Source: a virus (Duplodnaviria > Caudoviricetes). Taken from it: DNA of 57,883 nt. This document shows positions 12,538 through 20,401 of the stretch, piece after piece. Made by a program: the position numbers and the translations under genes. The notes under the pieces are model-generated. The model was not told where the DNA came from and did no database searches. It saw only the letters and a program-made list of their open reading frames with translations. Each line of letters starts with the position of its first letter. Position 1 is the stretch's first letter. The DNA is taken from the IMG/VR virus record IMGVR_UViG_3300035661_000073, positions 1-57,883 of that record; one strand, 5' to 3'.

Positions 12538-12810
12538 TCACTGCTTCATTTCCAAGATCTCCCCAGGGATGGACAGCAGCGTGTAGAGCACCTGGGCGGT
12601 GCCCTGGATGCGCTGGCCGTCCCGGGCGATGTCGCACTCGCGCAGTTCTTCCATGGTTTCCAGGTACATGTGCTCCAGCAGCCGGTGGAAGGCCGGCGCG
12701 TCCCGGAACATCACGGCCGCTTCGCCGGGGTCCAGGCCGTACTTGCTGATGAAGTCCTCCACCAGGGCTTGCCGGGTGGCTTGGGCCATGTCTTCGGGAG
12801 CCGGGGCCAT
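12538..12810 (-). CDS. Small hypothetical protein between portal and scaffold (90 aa)
   Basis: MAPAPEDMAQATRQ...; start overlaps the portal stop; helical '..RIQG' pattern typical of this syntenic position. Confidence 0.65.
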   Translation of the reverse strand: MAPAPEDMAQATRQALVEDFISKYGLDPGEAAVMFRDAPAFHRLLEHMYLETMEELRECDIARDGQRIQGTAQVLYTLLSIPGEILEMKQ

Positions 12811-15050
12811 CACATGCCTCCCATGGGTGGCGGCGGGGCGCCTGGCTGGGGTTGCTGGGCCTTGGCGTCCGGGGACACCTCGCCGGGATTGGTGGCCGGG
12901 GCCGGGGCTTCCAGCACCGCCGTCTCCTGGGCATCCGCCACGCCCATGGCCTGATACTGCTGGGCCAGCATCTTGGCCCAGATGGCGAACGAGACGGCCA
13001 TCTTGTCGTCCCATTCCCCGAACCGCTTGGCCACCTTCTCGGTGACCGGGATGAGGAAGGGCGGCGGGACCCCGTTCTTGGCGATGGCCATGCCCTGTTT
13101 GAACATCTCCAGGAGGGCGTCGTCCTTGGACGACTGGGCCTTGAACTTGGCCCCCGGCGACTGGCCGGCTTCCTCCATCACTTCCTTCTTCTTGGCTTCC
13201 AGGGCCATCTTCTCGGTGTGTTGCTGGGCCGTCAGGACCGCCTTCTCCGACTCGATGCCCATGCCTTCCGAAATGATCTCCAGGAACCCGATCTCGTCCA
13301 TCCATCCGGGCAGGCCGAACTGGTGGATGTCCCTGAAGAAATCCTTGGCCTTGCGCCCGACGATCTCCCGGCGCAGGGCGCCGCGCACTCCGTGGACCTG
13401 GAGATCGGCTTCGACCTGGAACTTTTCGGGGTTCTCGTAGTACTCCAGGATCCATGCCTTGCAGTCGCGCAGGAACGGCTTCCAGAAGTAGCGGTCGAAG
13501 TTGCCGACCACGTCCTTGATAAACTCCTCCAAGCTGTCCCAAAGCTGGTTCATCATCGAATCGGTGCGAACCCCGGAGCCCATGTCCTGGCCGTTCGCCA
13601 TCTCCAGGAACCCGGTGCAAATCGGGACCATGCTCTCGAAGGTCTTGAAGGTCGCCAGGAGTTGGTCCAGGTTGCTCGGCACGGTGAAGAAGTCCACAGG
13701 CTTGTGGTTGGCGGTGTCGTCCTTGCGCCCCTTGCGCCGATAGATCCAGGTCTTGCGCCCCTGGATGGTGAGATCCTTGTTCTCCACCATGCCGGCGTCG
13801 ATGGCCACCTGGAAGCCGCTGGTGTCGGTCAGGGCGTCATCGATGCTGCGGGTGATGTTGGTCAGCATCTCGACACATTCCAGCGCCGACTCGCCGGCCC
13901 CCACCCCGAAGATCGAGCACGGGTCGCGGCGGAACGGGATGAAGTAGACCGGGATCTTGGTCGGCTGGAAGGTGCGCTTGGCCACCTTGAGCACCCGCTT
14001 GTCGCAGAACCAGATCTCCCAGATCTGGTCGGTCAGGGCCTTCTTCTCGTCGTCATCGAGCCCCTTCAGGTCATCGTTGTCCGGGAACTTCTGGCCCAGG
14101 GTCTCCAGCGCGTCTGCGGTCAGGACTCCAATCCGCATCCACACACAGTAGCCAGACATGGCTCCACCGCTGACGTTGGTGGGCTGGGGAACCAACTCCC
14201 AACGCTTGAGGTTCTGGGCCCAGTTCCCGTGCTCACCCAAATCCTCCAGCAGTCCGGCCAGTTCGGACTTGATGAAGGACGGGTCCTCTTGGAGCGCCCG
14301 GATCTGGTGCCGGGAGAAGATGTTGTGGAAGTGGACGTATTCGAGGGACTGGGGTTTCTTGGCGTTCGGGTCCGGGTAGACCCGCTTGGGGTCGTAGATT
14401 TCCCACATCGGCTTGCGGTCATCGGCGGACTCCACGGTCTCGTTGCCGTCCTGCCAGCGCAGGCGGGGCTGGGAGATGCGGATGGGGCCGTAGGCCACCG
14501 CGCAACCCAGGTTCGACATGTACTCGCACATGTCGTCCAGGTTGTTTTCGTTGTCCATGGCCTCCTGGATGTCCTCGATCTCCTCCTTGAGGGCCGCCAC
14601 CTTGGCCTTCTCCTCCTCGGAGGATTCCCCGCGCTTGTGCCGGGGGGAGGGCTGGATATCCCAGGGCCGCCCGTGGATTGGGCAGACGTGCTTGAACAGT
14701 TTGGCCTTGCCGATCTGGGTGATGCGCGGCAGGCGCCGGTAGAAGAAGGTGCTTTCGGTGTAGCCGGCCGGGGGCGGGTTCACATCCTTGCCGGCCAGGT
14801 ACTTCTCCACCTTGATCCAGGCTTTTTCCTTCTCGCGCCGGCCCCAGTCGGCCAGGTCGATCTCGGCGTTGAACTGGCCGATCAGACGCTTGACCGCGTC
14901 CACCTCGGGGGCATCCTGTTGAGGTTCCTCGCCTATCGACGGGTCTTCCGGGGGCTTGCTGTTTGGTCCGTAGAACGGCGCCGTGAATTCTCCCAACCCC
15001 GGTGCGATCACCGGCAATCGGGCGGGCGCCATCGAATTCAGACCCGGCAT
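12810..15050 (-). CDS. Portal protein
   Basis: About 746 aa directly after terL; 'DPKRVYPDP', 'IPFRRDPCSIFGVG', Pro/Gln-rich tail; GGAG RBS. Confidence 0.85.
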   Translation of the reverse strand: MPGLNSMAPARLPVIAPGLGEFTAPFYGPNSKPPEDPSIGEEPQQDAPEVDAVKRLIGQFNAEIDLADWGRREKEKAWIKVEKYLAGKDVNPPPAGYTESTFFYRRLPRITQIGKAKLFKHVCPIHGRPWDIQPSPRHKRGESSEEEKAKVAALKEEIEDIQEAMDNENNLDDMCEYMSNLGCAVAYGPIRISQPRLRWQDGNETVESADDRKPMWEIYDPKRVYPDPNAKKPQSLEYVHFHNIFSRHQIRALQEDPSFIKSELAGLLEDLGEHGNWAQNLKRWELVPQPTNVSGGAMSGYCVWMRIGVLTADALETLGQKFPDNDDLKGLDDDEKKALTDQIWEIWFCDKRVLKVAKRTFQPTKIPVYFIPFRRDPCSIFGVGAGESALECVEMLTNITRSIDDALTDTSGFQVAIDAGMVENKDLTIQGRKTWIYRRKGRKDDTANHKPVDFFTVPSNLDQLLATFKTFESMVPICTGFLEMANGQDMGSGVRTDSMMNQLWDSLEEFIKDVVGNFDRYFWKPFLRDCKAWILEYYENPEKFQVEADLQVHGVRGALRREIVGRKAKDFFRDIHQFGLPGWMDEIGFLEIISEGMGIESEKAVLTAQQHTEKMALEAKKKEVMEEAGQSPGAKFKAQSSKDDALLEMFKQGMAIAKNGVPPPFLIPVTEKVAKRFGEWDDKMAVSFAIWAKMLAQQYQAMGVADAQETAVLEAPAPATNPGEVSPDAKAQQPQPGAPPPPMGGM

Positions 15051-15153
15051 CGCTTCTCCCTGGAGATGGGACGCTTGGCCCCTTGACACTTTCAGAGTGT
15101 GTACTTTTTAGTCATCGGTCAAATTTTTCTTCTGATCAAATAGGTTTACCCAA

Positions 15154-17712
15154 CTAGTCGGAATTGCGCCCGGCCCGGTACGGCACCCAGGGGTGTTCCT
15201 CCACCGGTTCCTGCCATTCCGTTTCCTGCCAGGGCGGCACGGCGTCCAGGCGGTGGGCGTAGTCGGCCAGGCCCATGGTCAGGTAGCGCAGGCTGGTGAT
15301 CACGTCGTAGCGCCGGATCGGGGTCTCACGCATGGGCCCGTCGCCGTCCTTGTTCCACTCGTAGCCGCTGTACTGGTCGTGCAGGGTTTTCAGGTTCTGG
15401 CTGATCAGCAGGCGCTGGGTCTGGAACCGGTGCCACATGGTGTCCATCCCGGTCGGGAAGGAGTTGTTGGCCTTGATGAATTTGCGCTTCTCCTCCTCGA
15501 TCTCGTCCCAGTTCGGGCCGTGGGCCAGGTCCCAGTACTTCTCCAGGATCTTGGTGCCGTCCGCCTGGGACGCCTGGTCCGAGGCCGGATCGATCATGAA
15601 CGACATCGATGGGCCCCACTTCTGGAGGTTCCGGTAGTGGTATTCATAGTCCTTCTCCGCCTGCTCGTACGAGGCGTAGACGTAGACCACGTCGGAGAGG
15701 GGATCCCAGGCGGCGGCGGTGGCGGCGGTCGGGTGGCGCCAGCCCACGTCCAGCCCACCCAGGTAGCGCCAGTGGGGACTGATGGCGATCTTGCGCGGGT
15801 CGTAGAGCACCGAGTCCAGCGGGAACGGGAAGATCAGGCCGGAGTTGCTGGTCTCCCGGCCCTCGGAACGGGCCGCCAGCATGGCCGGGTCGGACGCCCA
15901 CAGGGCCCGGTTCCGCGCCTTCACCTCTGGGTCCAGGTGCTTGGCGTCGTCGTAGCTCAGGTAGACGCGCAGGACATGGGGGCCGCCGGCATTGTCGCGG
16001 ATCCACTTCACCAGCGGGGTGATGCCGTGCTGCGGGCACAGGGCGTAGTAGATGAAGCCATTGTTGACCGAGATGCGGGCGATCAGCTCGTCCATGATCT
16101 CCTTCGGGCACTCCTCATCCACCCACACCCGGTCGCCAGTCCAGGAGGCCAGGGCCTGTTGGTCCATGCCGTGGGTCTTGAACGAGATGACGCTGGTGGT
16201 GTCGGACGGGACGTGCTTGACCCAGACAGTGTCGATGGCGCCGGCCACCGACTTCATGGACGGTTTGCCCATGATGTACTTGTGGTGGATCAGGGCCTCG
16301 CGCCCCGGCTTGTCGGTCCACCCCGGGCGGTTCTTGTCGGGCCCGAACAGTTTGCGCTGGGGGGCGTCACGCACGTTCTCGGTCGTGTCACCGACCACCC
16401 AGGCGTTGATGCCCCGCGAGGTTTTCGGGCCCTTGTACCAGTCCGGGTAGAGCCCGGTGGCGTCCCACGCCAGTTGCACAGCGGCGGCATGGCTCTTGCC
16501 CGAGTTGTGATTGAGCACCGTCCCAATGAAGTAGTTGTGGGTCCCCTCCACTTCAAAGTCCCACACCTGCCCCTTGCGGAGCCAATCAATGCGCCTTACG
16601 CTTTGGTTTGGAGCGTAATATGCCGAACAAGCACAAAGGTCGTCAATCTCGAGACTGGCCCGTGGACCAGATTCGCCGTTGGGTGGAGGTTGAAGGGTGG
16701 AATCTGCACCAGATTTCTCGAGAGATGGGGGTGCCCCTGTCCACCATGCAGAAGGTTCTGGTCCGGAATGGGATTCTCTTGAAGGGCAAGGGACGGCCCC
16801 CCCGAGACTGGCCAGTCGATCAGATCCGGCTGTGGGTGGAAGTTGATGGCTGGACGATGGATCAGGTTGCTCGAAAACTTGGCACCCACCACCAGACGGT
16901 GTCAAAGGTTTGTGCAAAACATGGGATTCGGACCCAACGGACAGGTCCTCGAGCAGGGGAAGGGCACCCGAAATGGGAAGGCGGCCGGATCCTGGACAAG
17001 CACGGCTACGTGCTGGTCTACCGGTTGAACCATCCGATGGCACGGAAGCGTGGGAAGATGCCCCCCATCTACGTCCCTGAGCATCGACTGGTGATGTCCG
17101 AGCACCTTGGGCGGATGCTTGATCCTCTCGAGGTTGTCCATCACAAGAACGGGGAGAAGCAGGATAATCGGCTCGAGAACCTCGAGCTTTACACATCCAA
17201 TGCTCTCCACCTTGAGGACGAACTGACGGGTCGCTGCCCAAAGTGGAGCGAAGCCGGGAAACAGGCGATCCGTCTTGGAGTAAAGCGGAGGTGGGCTGCC
17301 ACCCGGAAGGGGTCAGGATCCGGTGACCCCTCGAGCAAATGATCTGGGTTCCGTCATCGAAGGTAACCCGGTAGAGGTCCTCGAGGCATTTCTTGAACGG
17401 CCGATGAGCCCTCGAGATCACCACCTCATGGCCGTCCCATGACTCCACGAAGAAGTCACCGTCGATCTCGTCAACCCGCCTCGAACACTTGGCCACCGGG
17501 TCCCAGATCTCCTGCTCACCACCTACACATTGGTTCGCTCCGAAAATTCCCTTGATATGCTTGAAGGAATTGAAAAATTCCAACTGCGGTTCGTAGATCC
17601 CGTTCGGAAAGGCCATGTCGGTCAGGAAGGCCATCTCGGCTTCCTGCTGGATGCCGGCCTCCGCCAGTCGTAATCCGGTGACCAGCCCTTCCAAGCCGTC
17701 GTGTCTTGCCAT
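15154..17712 (-). CDS. terL: Terminase large subunit, intein-containing (about 510 aa after splicing)
   Basis: Walker A GANQ|SGKS split by the intein, Walker B 'VWVDEE', nuclease motifs 'GGLDVGWRHP' and 'YDVITSLRY'. Confidence 0.93.
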   Translation of the reverse strand: MARHDGLEGLVTGLRLAEAGIQQEAEMAFLTDMAFPNGIYEPQLEFFNSFKHIKGIFGANQCVGGEQEIWDPVAKCSRRVDEIDGDFFVESWDGHEVVISRAHRPFKKCLEDLYRVTFDDGTQIICSRGHRILTPSGWQPTSALLQDGSPVSRLRSTLGSDPSVRPQGGEHWMCKARGSRADYPASPRSCDGQPREDQASAQGARTSPVDAQGRRWGASSHASVPSDGSTGRPARSRACPGSGRLPISGALPLLEDLSVGSESHVLHKPLTPSGGGCQVFEQPDPSSSHQLPPTAGSDRLASLGGAVPCPSRESHSGPEPSAWWTGAPPSLEKSGADSTLQPPPNGESGPRASLEIDDLCACSAYYAPNQSVRRIDWLRKGQVWDFEVEGTHNYFIGTVLNHNSGKSHAAAVQLAWDATGLYPDWYKGPKTSRGINAWVVGDTTENVRDAPQRKLFGPDKNRPGWTDKPGREALIHHKYIMGKPSMKSVAGAIDTVWVKHVPSDTTSVISFKTHGMDQQALASWTGDRVWVDEECPKEIMDELIARISVNNGFIYYALCPQHGITPLVKWIRDNAGGPHVLRVYLSYDDAKHLDPEVKARNRALWASDPAMLAARSEGRETSNSGLIFPFPLDSVLYDPRKIAISPHWRYLGGLDVGWRHPTAATAAAWDPLSDVVYVYASYEQAEKDYEYHYRNLQKWGPSMSFMIDPASDQASQADGTKILEKYWDLAHGPNWDEIEEEKRKFIKANNSFPTGMDTMWHRFQTQRLLISQNLKTLHDQYSGYEWNKDGDGPMRETPIRRYDVITSLRYLTMGLADYAHRLDAVPPWQETEWQEPVEEHPWVPYRAGRNSD
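16574..16602 (+). promoter_or_regulatory. Candidate sigma70 promoter for the antisense HNH gene
   Basis: TTGCGG-N17-TACGCT, then GGAG (16610-16613) and ATG 16620. Confidence 0.45.
16620..17342 (+). CDS. HNH homing endonuclease with two N-terminal HTH-like repeats, encoded antisense inside the intein
   Basis: Two copies of 'RDWPVDQIRxWVEVxGW'; 'GEGHPKWEGGR...HGY...YVPEHRLVM...VVHHKNGEKQDNRLENLEL' (HNH_3 type); GGAG RBS. Confidence 0.92.
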   Translation: MPNKHKGRQSRDWPVDQIRRWVEVEGWNLHQISREMGVPLSTMQKVLVRNGILLKGKGRPPRDWPVDQIRLWVEVDGWTMDQVARKLGTHHQTVSKVCAKHGIRTQRTGPRAGEGHPKWEGGRILDKHGYVLVYRLNHPMARKRGKMPPIYVPEHRLVMSEHLGRMLDPLEVVHHKNGEKQDNRLENLELYTSNALHLEDELTGRCPKWSEAGKQAIRLGVKRRWAATRKGSGSGDPSSK

Positions 17713-17791
17713 GAAAACACCCCTGGGTTTGGGGGCATCCCCCGTCCCAAGGGTGTCTACTTTTTAGTCATCCGTCAATTTTTTGAGCCGA

Positions 17792-18223
17792 TCACCCTTC
17801 ACTTATTGCGATGTTGTCGCAAATAAAGGCGTGGTCGGGGTGGTCGATGGTGATGCCCCAGATGGGCTCCTCCATGATCTCGCCCATGTATTCCAGCAGG
17901 GCGAAGGCCGGAGCCCCCCTGGGAGTGCGGACCACCACCGGGCGCTGGTCCTGGGCCGCCCGGCGGGCCCGGATGAATTCCTGCTTGCCGTTCTCGCACA
18001 GGACACAGACCTTGTGGGCCAGGGTGCATTCCAGGATGCCGAAGTCGTGGCGGAACCGGTGGACCATGCGGATGCCGGCGTCGAAGGAGGTCAGCACATG
18101 GGCGGTGCGGAAGTCGTGATCGCGGAAGTCGTAGGCCAGCACCGGGTCGCCGGGATGCAGGTGGGGGATGGCGGTGCTTTCCCCGGACGGGTGCAGCACC
18201 TGGGCATCGCCGCGCAGACTCAT
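17792..18223 (-). CDS. Free-standing Hint (intein-like) domain protein
   Basis: 'SLRGDAQVLHPSG' (block A), 'LHPGDPVLAYD', 'LECTLAHKV' (TxxH block B), 'PIWGITID..HAFICDNIAIS' (block F/G without HN). Confidence 0.8.
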   Translation of the reverse strand: MSLRGDAQVLHPSGESTAIPHLHPGDPVLAYDFRDHDFRTAHVLTSFDAGIRMVHRFRHDFGILECTLAHKVCVLCENGKQEFIRARRAAQDQRPVVVRTPRGAPAFALLEYMGEIMEEPIWGITIDHPDHAFICDNIAISEG

Positions 18224-18477
18224 TCCTCGTCCTCGCTCATGGGCCGGTCGTTGTCCTTCCAGCAGGCCACCAGTTGTTCCTCGGAGTCACAGGCCATCAG
18301 GCGGTACATCCCCAGGGTTTCCATCGGGGTGGCATCGTCGGTACGTTTCTGCACCACATTCATGGTTCCTTCCTGGGTCATGGTCAGGATCAGCACCTGC
18401 CGGAACCGGTCCACGTTGGCGGCCAGGTCCATGGCATGGTTGATGATTTCCCCGCGTTGTTCGTCGGTCCACTTCAT
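18220..18477 (-). CDS. Hypothetical protein
   Basis: GGAG RBS; ATGA coupling to the Hint gene. Confidence 0.65.
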   Translation of the reverse strand: MKWTDEQRGEIINHAMDLAANVDRFRQVLILTMTQEGTMNVVQKRTDDATPMETLGMYRLMACDSEEQLVACWKDNDRPMSEDEE

Positions 18478-18625: not shown

Positions 18626-18823
18626 TCATTGCAGCGCCTTTCGGAGCCATTCGTCTCGCTCCTCGGTGGCACGGGACTTGGAGTAGTGGCCACACCTTGG
18701 GCATTCCAACCGTTCGGCTGCGGGGTGGACGGCCGCCCATGCGTGGTGGCACCACTCACATTCGGCTTTCTCCGCGCACCACGGGCCTCGTTCGTCGTCG
18801 GGTTTGCTCGTTATGACGGTCAA
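18626..18823 (-). CDS. Small zinc-ribbon protein
   Basis: CEWC...CPRC; probable TTG start overlapping the upstream stop. Confidence 0.55.
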   Translation of the reverse strand: MTVITSKPDDERGPWCAEKAECEWCHHAWAAVHPAAERLECPRCGHYSKSRATEERDEWLRKALQ

Positions 18824-18996
18824 CCTCCCAAGACAGCATCTGGAGTATTCATGCGGAAACTGCCGCCAGGGAAGGGGATGCGCTCCATGGGGCCGCCGCA
18901 GGCCGAGCACTCCAGGCCCTCGTCCATCTGGTGGGTCGGGCGGATCACCTCGTCCCGGTGGGTGCATTCGGTACATCGATAGGCGTAGATCGGCAT
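18820..18996 (-). CDS. FmdB-family zinc-ribbon protein (58 aa, not in ORF track)
   Basis: MPIYAYRCTECTH...LECSACGGPMERI matches the MPxYxYxCxxC...CxxCG pattern. Confidence 0.8.
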   Translation of the reverse strand: MPIYAYRCTECTHRDEVIRPTHQMDEGLECSACGGPMERIPFPGGSFRMNTPDAVLGG

Positions 18997-19292: not shown

Positions 19293-20060
19293 CTAGAACC
19301 TCAAGTCCGAATTCCAGTCATCGCTGGGGTTGGCATCGCCCTGCATCCCCAGGGTGGGGATGTCGTCGGTGGGCATCTCCACCTCCGCATCCACCACCGC
19401 CACCCCCTGGGCCGGAAGCAGGATCTTGATGCCGGTCTTCTCCTCGATCAGTGCCTGGTGGACCGTCAGCACCGACTGGAGCCGGGACCACACCTCCGGC
19501 CCGGTCAGGTCGTCGTGGTGGGTCACATCCACGGTCTGCTTCTTGCCGTACTTCTTGGCGTACATGGACTCGGCCATGCGGATCCGCAGGTCGGCCCGGG
19601 TCTTCTGGTGGAAGGTCTGCTTCCCGGACGGGTCCGGCTCGTCCACGATCTCAAGCGCCTGTTCCGCCAGGATGATGGCCCGCATCTTCTCGGCGGTCTC
19701 CATCAGGTCGGCAAAGGTCTTGTAGTCCGAGATCCAGTTCATGACCGTGCGGGCCTTGGGCATCCCGGGCACGGCCAGCAGGGCCGGGATGGAGTAGCCG
19801 GACGCCACCATGTCCAGCATCAGTTCCATCACGTCGGCCCGGGAAAGCTGCTTGCGGTTGACGATCCAGTAGTCCTGGGTCTCGGTGCGCTGGAGGGCTT
19901 CCAGGGTGATGGCCGCCCGCAGGTCGCCCTGGCCGATGCAGGGGTTGGAGGCGAAGTAGTGGCCCATGGCGTCCATGAGGGTCAGGGGCATCCGGCCCAC
20001 CACCGGCACGGTGTCCGGCGGGGCGGTGGGGTCCGGGGTGGCTGGGGGGCGTCCGCGCAT
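19293..20060 (-). CDS. terS: Terminase small subunit (Sf6-like)
   Basis: 'MVASGYSIPALL..PGMPKARTVMNWI...AEQALEIVD...RIRMAESMYAKKYG' matches the Sf6 gp1-type pattern; ATG 20060 overlaps the upstream stop. Confidence 0.8.
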   Translation of the reverse strand: MRGRPPATPDPTAPPDTVPVVGRMPLTLMDAMGHYFASNPCIGQGDLRAAITLEALQRTETQDYWIVNRKQLSRADVMELMLDMVASGYSIPALLAVPGMPKARTVMNWISDYKTFADLMETAEKMRAIILAEQALEIVDEPDPSGKQTFHQKTRADLRIRMAESMYAKKYGKKQTVDVTHHDDLTGPEVWSRLQSVLTVHQALIEEKTGIKILLPAQGVAVVDAEVEMPTDDIPTLGMQGDANPSDDWNSDLRF

Positions 20061-20401
20061 CACGACACCAGGGGCTGGTCCGGGGCGGGCGGCGGGCCGG
20101 CCTGGGCATGGGGCGGCCCCCCGAGCAGTTCCCGGATCGGGTCCAGGGCGGCCATGATGTCCACCTTGGCGACCCGGGCGCCGATAGTGGTCCGCATCAG
20201 TGGGGCCAGGCGCAGCATCAGGGTGGCCTTGATCTGCTGGTTCTCGATCAAGGTCAGGGGCAGCAGGTGGTTGATCACCTTGGCGTGGGGGTTGCCGATG
20301 GCGTCCATGTCCTTGACCCACTTGAGCGCATCGTGGATCTGGAGGTTGCCGACCGGAGGTCCCGGGGCCGGGTTCAGGGGGGCGATGTTATCGGGTGCCA
20401 T
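20060..20401 (-). CDS. Hypothetical protein
   Basis: GAGG RBS before ATG 20401; coupled to terS. Confidence 0.6.
   Translation of the reverse strand: MAPDNIAPLNPAPGPPVGNLQIHDALKWVKDMDAIGNPHAKVINHLLPLTLIENQQIKATLMLRLAPLMRTTIGARVAKVDIMAALDPIRELLGGPPHAQAGPPPAPDQPLVS

Follow-up and report, generated by a model that had tools for sequence, protein, structure and literature searches.

Why should a phage carry what looks like a complete mini-intein, without exteins and with a start codon of its own, immediately upstream of a large terminase gene (terL) that holds another intein? The question was raised by the window, that is, the whole stretch of DNA analysed (57,883 bp), which is a complete phage genome with terminal repeats. 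The genes around the locus lie on the minus strand in the order terS, 94-aa ORF, Zn-ribbon ORF, Zn-ribbon-like ORF, o85, Hint gene, terL and portal:

19293–20321, minus strand: terS, small terminase of the Sf6 type (PF20901, E 5.2e-19)
between terS and the 58-aa Zn-ribbon ORF, minus strand: 94-aa ORF
18820–18996, minus strand: 58-aa Zn-ribbon ORF
18626–18817, minus strand: second, Zn-ribbon-like ORF of ~63 aa (pattern CxxxxxCxxC...CxxC, GC3 about 0.74)
18220–18477, minus strand: o85, an 85-aa ORF translationally coupled to the Hint gene
18224–18234, minus strand: pair of GAGGA motifs, a predicted ribosome-binding region read from the sequence
17792–18223, minus strand: stand-alone Hint-domain gene (143 aa plus TGA), as judged from ORF, homology, predicted fold and residue comparison
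15154–17712, minus strand: terL, encoding an 852-aa precursor (Terminase_6N, Intein_splicing)
12810–15089, minus strand: portal gene, next after terL

terS heads a string of genes on the same strand of which the Hint gene is the last, and the stop codon of the Hint gene lies 79 nt upstream of terL. The Zn-ribbon-like ORF, placed between the annotated Zn-ribbon ORF and o85, matched no family of PADLOC, the sole library scanned with it, and no family match was found for o85.

The Hint protein has 143 aa (MSLRGDAQVLHPSG...CTLAHKV...IDHPDHAFICDNIAISEG, then TGA). Its ATG (18221–18223) and the TGA of o85 overlap as ATGA, and GAGGA copies lie at 18230–18234, 6 nt upstream of the Hint ATG, and at 18224–18228, within codons for the acidic tail of o85. 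The earlier note on this DNA had placed this coupling in the terS operon; the ATGA overlap was confirmed, its partner being o85 and not terS, from which the gene is separated by small ORFs. The GC contents at codon positions 1/2/3 of the Hint gene were 0.674/0.431/0.868, compared with 0.614/0.401/0.887 for the portal gene and 0.607/0.444/0.929 for the terL C-extein, and this pattern of the neighbouring structural genes was seen at the Hint locus in the Hint frame only. The claim that the gene is present, uses codons typical of the genome and looks maintained was thus borne out by the intact ORF, the Shine-Dalgarno (SD) sequence, the ATGA overlap and the GC3 value. A look through sequencing runs gave one DNA run, probably from the source sample, and no RNA run among those listed. 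Fusion of the Hint protein to TerL by read-through or frameshifting was also considered and was excluded, because the Hint gene is in another frame than terL and a further in-frame stop codon occurs 24 nt downstream.

When the Hint protein was folded by AF2 with a 14-row alignment, a model with a mean pLDDT of 95.7 and a pTM of 0.88 was obtained. The alignment included true inteins, which favours the Hint fold, and the model is therefore partly a model of the family; folding of the single sequence gave a pLDDT of 37.8 and was unusable. When the model was compared with the PDB by Foldseek, 60 entries matched at E ≤ 0.001, those listed being without exception inteins, BIL domains or Hedgehog Hint domains. 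The TM-scores were 0.83 for 1mi8 (Ssp DnaB mini-intein, the top match), 0.82 for 4o1r and 0.83 for 1at0, and the BIL and Hedgehog matches, including 6y75, 2lwy and 1at0, ranged from 0.75 to 0.83. The alignment extended over about 145 columns, so that the whole 143 aa corresponds to the Hint core. The earlier note had read the entire protein as a mini-intein fold and had suggested AlphaFold as a check, and the predicted structure agrees with that reading.

Searched by itself, the Hint protein gave weak matches to Pfam Hint (E 0.062) and to the Mxe GyrA intein (E 0.027; colinear at both ends), with no further Pfam domains and nothing meaningful in PHROGs, PADLOC and NCBIfam. The family profile matched 20 distinct PDB sequences at E ≤ 0.001, all of them inteins or BIL domains, and Pfam Hint was matched by 8 of 14 family members, as was Hom_end_hint. 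On the model and these matches, the 143-aa protein is assigned to the Hint (Hedgehog/intein) superfamily.

The closest relatives of the protein were found inside terminases. A phmmer search of the Hint protein against 1.84 billion protein representatives (E ≤ 0.001) gave 21 matches, the best being P0001, a TerL of 1008 aa (E 1.2e-42, 51% identity). Its matched residues 63–202 form a mini-intein inserted at GANQ|C...VVSN|SGK in the Walker-A loop; another such intein, that of contig L011, is 48% identical to the window protein. In the viral and metagenome collections, the homologue was an in-frame terL intein in all 17 distinct related contigs among the matches listed; the loci confirmed in a metagenome scan, at least three, were all terL inteins. 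The earlier note had proposed to look for co-occurrence of homologues with intein-bearing terL; the association was found, in one direction only and in another form, as the homologue itself is the terL intein in these contigs. These contigs belong to the same phage group as the window, since their TerL C-exteins are 53–77% identical to that of the window over the aligned part. Five related records, of which one is 99% complete, were searched from end to end, and each has a single copy, in terL, whereas in the window genome the mini-intein family occurs only outside terL. Judged by sequence, the window protein is by descent a member of the TerL P-loop mini-intein family.

In this phage group the mini-intein family has two insertion points in the TerL Walker-A loop, separated by three codons. 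It lies before SGK (site a, GANQ|..|SGK) in L005, L006/L007, L008, L009, L010 and L016–L022, and after SGK (site b, GANQSGK|..|SH) in L002, L003, L004 and L011. P-loop terL inteins at neighbouring sites are also represented by the TerL1-a/b insertions of mycobacteriophages (Kelley et al. 2016, PMC5050341). Three terminases (P0001, L017 and L021) hold two inteins, with the mini-intein followed by 'SGK' alone and then by a second intein; LAGLIDADG motifs were seen in the second intein of P0001 and in L022, which is cut at the 5' side and lacks its start. In L024 (4021–6636), a TerL of a different type carries a LAGLIDADG intein in its C-terminal half (GLDVGWNR|C...VVSN|TAAV); the Hint lobes of this intein are members of the mini-intein family (37–40% identity over two matched stretches). 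Four larger proteins (P0007, P0009, P0013 and P0017, 941–1575 aa) contain three to four copies each, counted as HMMER stretches, of related mini- or LAGLIDADG inteins and give the impression of multi-intein phage RNA-polymerase-like proteins. By tblastn against 50,697 GenBank phage records only matches of E ≥ 2 were obtained, 20 of 25 in mycobacteriophages and all those listed lying under terminase genes, and a central family member gave one weak Vibrio phage match in the same records. Given such weak matches, the mini-intein family has no isolate representative in this set.

These results bear on the simplest alternative, in which the ORF would be a chance open frame or a mis-assembled piece of terL. 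Long spurious ORFs are common in GC-rich DNA, and several overlap the Hint ORF itself. Against this stand the matches to a TerL intein (E 1.2e-42) and to a homologue of 147 aa (E 4.3e-29), the high-confidence Hint model and a codon-position GC pattern that is right in the Hint frame only, while mis-assembly is opposed by the intact neighbouring terL with its own, different intein and by a record that is a complete genome with terminal repeats. For practical purposes this alternative is refuted by the homology search, the codon-position GC and the AF2 model, and we regard its probability as negligible.

Whether the protein could still act as an intein was judged from an alignment of the stand-alone forms with nine related inteins:

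position 1: Cys in 9/9 related inteins; Ser2, after Met, in the window copy
block-F Asp (presumably the position named F:4): Asp in 9/9 related inteins; Gly123 in the window copy
terminal residue: Asn in 9/9 related inteins; Glu142 in the window copy
+1 residue: Ser or Thr in 9/9 related inteins; Gly143, then stop, in the window copy
block B TxxH: kept in the window copy (T67-L-A-H70)
block-F motif DHPDH: kept in the window copy (IDHPDHAF)

Ser2 aligns with Cys1 and is preceded by Met alone; Ser at position 1 of an intein is chemically allowed. The window ORF thus has Met directly before position 1 and a stop codon one residue past the last intein position, and no remnants of terL exteins were seen in the flanks of the gene. 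The window copy is not an in-frame insertion with N- and C-exteins, and it is not a split intein, as both lobes lie in one 143-aa chain and terL is one continuous gene. On the residues and established intein chemistry, the window protein should be unable to splice, because it has no C-extein, no terminal Asn and no +1 nucleophile and has lost the block-F Asp; the same residues lead us to infer that it can neither splice nor cleave. The earlier note had described a protein without exteins or a terminal HN-[C/S/T] that could not splice in cis, and both points hold: the chain ends in Glu-Gly-stop, the flanks carry no extein traces and, on sequence, the C-extein and the block-F Asp needed for cis splicing are gone. 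Its description of intact blocks was right for block B (TLAH) and right only in part for block F, where the Asp invariant in the nine inteins is Gly123.

In contrast, the intein that now resides in terL has the full catalytic set, from Cys1 through an SxxH block B and the Asp of block F to a closing His-Asn with Ser behind it. Two overlapping features are found here:

16504–17529, minus strand: terL intein, TerL residues 62–403 (342 aa), at site a (GANQ|C...HN|SGKS)
16608–17342, plus strand: HTH-HTH-HNH homing-endonuclease ORF of 244 aa (HNH_3 E 1.6e-10, HTH_23 E 1.2e-6)

The terL intein was not found by the profile of the stand-alone family at E ≤ 1. A paralogous relation between the Hint protein and the resident intein was rejected, BLASTP of the Hint protein against the window TerL giving a best E of 0.65; by sequence, the two belong to distantly related Hint families. 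The HNH ORF underlies TerL residues 124–369 on the opposite strand, and this 246-residue stretch of TerL is coded only as the antisense of the HNH ORF and is probably disordered. The '~240-aa unstructured insert' reported by the earlier note is thus the antisense strand of the HNH ORF. When the codons of the HNH ORF were shuffled synonymously, the terL frame stayed open in none of 1000 shuffles (mean 6.1 stops), which implies that both strands are co-constrained. The HNH ORF has a GC3 of 0.665, below that of the rest of the genes of the genome, and contains a 93-nt direct repeat (16629–16721 and 16782–16874, 72% identical), which is a duplicated helix-turn-helix module. A scan with the HNH protein found no further phages. 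In the main text of a recent study on antisense or out-of-frame endonucleases in inteins, the antisense ones are of the LAGLIDADG and VSR-like types, and HNH endonucleases are described in frame only (Gosselin et al. 2025, bioRxiv 10.1101/2025.01.02.630785). The window terL intein resembles these systems in having an endonuclease nested on the opposite strand with the intein frame kept open, and differs from those described there in that the antisense endonuclease is of the HNH type.

It had been suggested in the earlier note that the Hint protein is a domesticated intein that helps or gates the splicing of TerL in trans, or that poisons the mini-inteins of competitors. The position of the gene directly upstream of an intein-bearing terL, the 246-residue, probably disordered stretch of the resident intein and the presence in the phage group of competitors with mini-inteins 35–51% identical to the Hint protein would all suit such a role. 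Nevertheless, the terL intein appears to be self-sufficient because it has a full set of catalytic residues, and it belongs to a distant Hint family; the Hint protein is modelled as a complete closed fold with no obvious open half to complement another intein; and no precedent was found in the literature. Nothing points to an action in trans on the terL intein, no support was found for a poisoning of competitors' inteins, and we consider the suggestion very unlikely in either form.

The window differs from related phages between the Zn-ribbon ORF and terL. In these phages the Zn-ribbon ORF is followed directly by terL, and the window has about 1.1 kb more, made up of the Zn-ribbon-like ORF, o85 and the Hint gene. 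A homologue of o85 (58% identical) was found in two related phage contigs, in which it lies upstream of terS with no Hint gene adjacent; a profile scan with the o85 alignment found no further phages. A tblastx comparison over the 1.1-kb region gave noise in the GC-rich DNA, and the only pointer was a 45-nt repeat. Three elements lie at the junctions of terL:

17750–17794, minus strand: first copy of a 45-nt element (repeat family D5), starting at the Hint stop codon
15094–15138, between terL and portal: second copy of the 45-nt element, 82% identical to the first
17713–17760, minus strand: RNA hairpin of very high stability, located in the Hint–terL gap with its 3' end against the terL ATG (17710–17712)

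As the 45-nt element is present on both sides, terL is flanked by direct repeats. The 26-nt core of the element (TTGACNGATGACTAAAAAGTANACAC) has two matches in the window and none in 100 shuffles, and the repeat may be regulatory, or else a scar left by recombination during the exchange of a terL cassette. A 96-nt stretch containing the hairpin folds at −40.9 kcal/mol (z −4.68), a stability reached by none of 200 shuffles. The hairpin covers the likely SD sequence of terL and, to judge by its appearance, could be a terminator or gate translation. No hairpin of this kind accompanies the portal-side copy of the repeat (z +0.98).

The window protein is not the only stand-alone form. Four more homologue clusters of stand-alone size (147–153 aa) were found in metagenomes:

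P0002: 147 aa
P0005: 153 aa
P0004/P0022: 147 aa, P0022 being present on 12 contigs, the longest of 58,615 nt
P0008/P0023: 150 aa

P0004 has 126 aa, being shorter at the N-terminus and diverged at its start compared with P0022, the full-length member of the cluster (147 aa), and may be a decaying copy. A profile search limited to 73–268 aa found no more close members. The ends of the five stand-alone forms are similar, with Met at −1 in 4/5 (the window protein and three of the other four) and a stop codon 1–5 residues past the last intein position in 5/5. Position 1 is Pro, Gly, Pro and Ser/Tyr in the other forms; neither Cys1 nor a +1 Ser/Thr occurs in any of the five, and the terminal Asn and the block-F Asp are each kept in 2/5. 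Scans of viral contigs with P0002 and P0022 gave no match and that with P0023 two partial matches. A contig scan with P0005 returned terL inteins only, a scan with an alignment of four stand-alone forms only a further terL intein, with LAGLIDADG, and scans of genome contigs for stand-alone homologues no match. Searches of the ESM Atlas and BFVD gave several viral clusters or models of 128–172 aa with Hint features, hinting that other Hint-like phage proteins of this size exist. The protein g075 of Lactobacillus phage P1 (taken from what we presume to be the genome accession of this phage) was rejected as a Hint protein, as it had no Pfam Hint match and an hhalign probability of only 10%.

A maximum-likelihood tree was calculated from a 143-column alignment. 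The stand-alone forms were interspersed with inteins, and the window protein was nested among them, with the inteins of P0001 and L011 as its nearest neighbours; every stand-alone protein except P0002 is closer to an intein than to another stand-alone protein. A single clade of all five was rejected (AU p = 0.011), whereas a clade of the window protein, P0002 and P0005 was not (p = 0.10). Two pairs, the window protein with P0002 (79/72) and P0022 with P0023 (84/78), were weakly supported, their members being 37–40% identical. The tree suggests that stand-alone forms were born at least twice, or else that rate effects are strong on an alignment of 143 columns. Because the lone clade was rejected and the proteins are more like inteins than like each other, repeated and possibly short-lived births would fit these data.

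How well the folded domain is maintained was assessed from its conserved columns. The window protein keeps 38 of 49 non-catalytic columns conserved among inteins and 31 of 85 variable columns, and across the five stand-alone forms the retention was 0.61–0.82 at conserved and 0.19–0.36 at variable columns. Since the core inteins retain 0.87–0.95 of the conserved columns, the lower values of the stand-alone forms point to a general relaxation. In a substitution-only neutral simulation, 22% of ORFs were free of stop codons at 70% identity and 6% at 50%. An intact ORF by itself is thus weak evidence of selection, because neutral ORFs may stay open and a protein search finds open frames only. Estimates of pairwise dN/dS (NG86) suffered from saturation and from the shared GC3 bias, were uninformative and were not used.

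Two readings of these results were weighed. The Hint gene could be a pure fossil of replacement or rearrangement of a terL allele, still open for want of time and heading to loss. Such a fossil would account for the rarity of the stand-alone form (five clusters among 1.84 billion representatives), the scatter of the five forms outside a single clade, the loss of key residues in a patchwork that differs between lineages, the lowered retention at conserved columns and the one possibly truncated variant (P0004 compared with P0022), and by the neutral simulation a frame may stay open at moderate divergence. It accounts less well for the precise trimming at both ends, with Met at −1 in all forms except one and a stop just past the intein in every form, for the SD sequence and ATGA coupling, for the strong codon-position GC pattern and for conserved columns that are kept far better than variable ones. 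The weakly supported pairs also speak against it: if each pair shares a stand-alone ancestor, an identity of only 37–40% would mean long persistence. We consider a fossil quite possible, and think it somewhat likelier that the ex-intein is kept for a non-catalytic, binding-type role, a reading that we favour slightly.

In the scheme that we propose, the Hint gene would be an 'ex-intein', a complete Hint domain derived from a mini-intein of the TerL Walker-A (P-loop) site that is now a cistron of its own immediately upstream of terL, with its own ATG coupled to o85. The protein would fold as a whole mini-intein, resembling a permanently 'excised' intein. Its origin would most likely lie in intein turnover at terL, where an unrelated intein with an antisense HNH endonuclease now holds the P-loop site, so that the old intein family would survive in the window genome only outside terL. 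The folded domain would then have been kept by selection for the binding-type role.

Known Hint systems offer partial parallels. The TerL Walker-A mini-inteins (P0001, L002–L021) are of the same family as the window protein (up to 51% identity), with about 141–143 aa, the Hint fold, an association with terL and recognisable blocks B and F (TLAH, IDHPDHAF). In contrast to them, the window protein lies outside terL, has no exteins, and shows the changes of Cys1 to Ser, block-F Asp to Gly and Asn-Ser to Glu-Gly-stop. Domains of the BIL and Hedgehog types lie within larger proteins, keep the nucleophile at position 1 and cleave off or transfer their N-terminal partner. They share the Hint fold with the window protein and, like it, are Hint domains doing something other than canonical splicing; unlike BIL domains, the window protein has no flanking polypeptide, and it is most closely related to terL inteins. 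Intein-derived, free-standing genes beside their target gene are described from yeast, namely the HO endonuclease and the WHO elements; splicing is not needed for them, and their proteins act by cutting DNA (Coughlan et al. 2020, PMC7282813). As far as that account goes, the window gene resembles them as an extein-less gene of its own beside the gene targeted by its intein family, with splicing playing no part, but its product is a bare Hint core of 143 aa, to which neither a nuclease nor a DNA-binding module is joined. Nearby, a nuclease is encoded only by the separate HNH gene within the terL intein. The window protein is best described as a look-alike of an excised intein that is made directly by translation. 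In the main texts of the literature searched, two phage-intein surveys among them, we found no account of a mini-intein gene standing alone and lacking a nuclease.

The usual view of inteins is that of selfish insertions, which may persist, lose their endonuclease or be deleted precisely, and have no other fate. At this locus a mini-intein appears to have left its host gene and to persist beside it as an independent, folded and splicing-dead protein, with at least four counterparts elsewhere. A bolder reading, which we hold to be rather doubtful, is that terminase P-loop mini-inteins have repeatedly ended up, under selection, as stand-alone ex-inteins, each a folded protein with a role of its own. 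If this were true, the role might, for instance, belong to the packaging module or bear on how terL alleles compete. An endonuclease intein would take the terL site, and what the old intein did would be saved by a catalytically dead gene beside terL. Such genes would be a nuclease-free phage counterpart of yeast WHO/HO, and some mini-inteins would be more than passengers. Selection on the stand-alone copies would mean that in phages mini-inteins, or the products of their excision, can have functions of their own, and the question whether inteins are ever useful would become approachable. If the copies are fossils, they would document how one intein replaced another at a hot insertion site and how terL alleles exchange.
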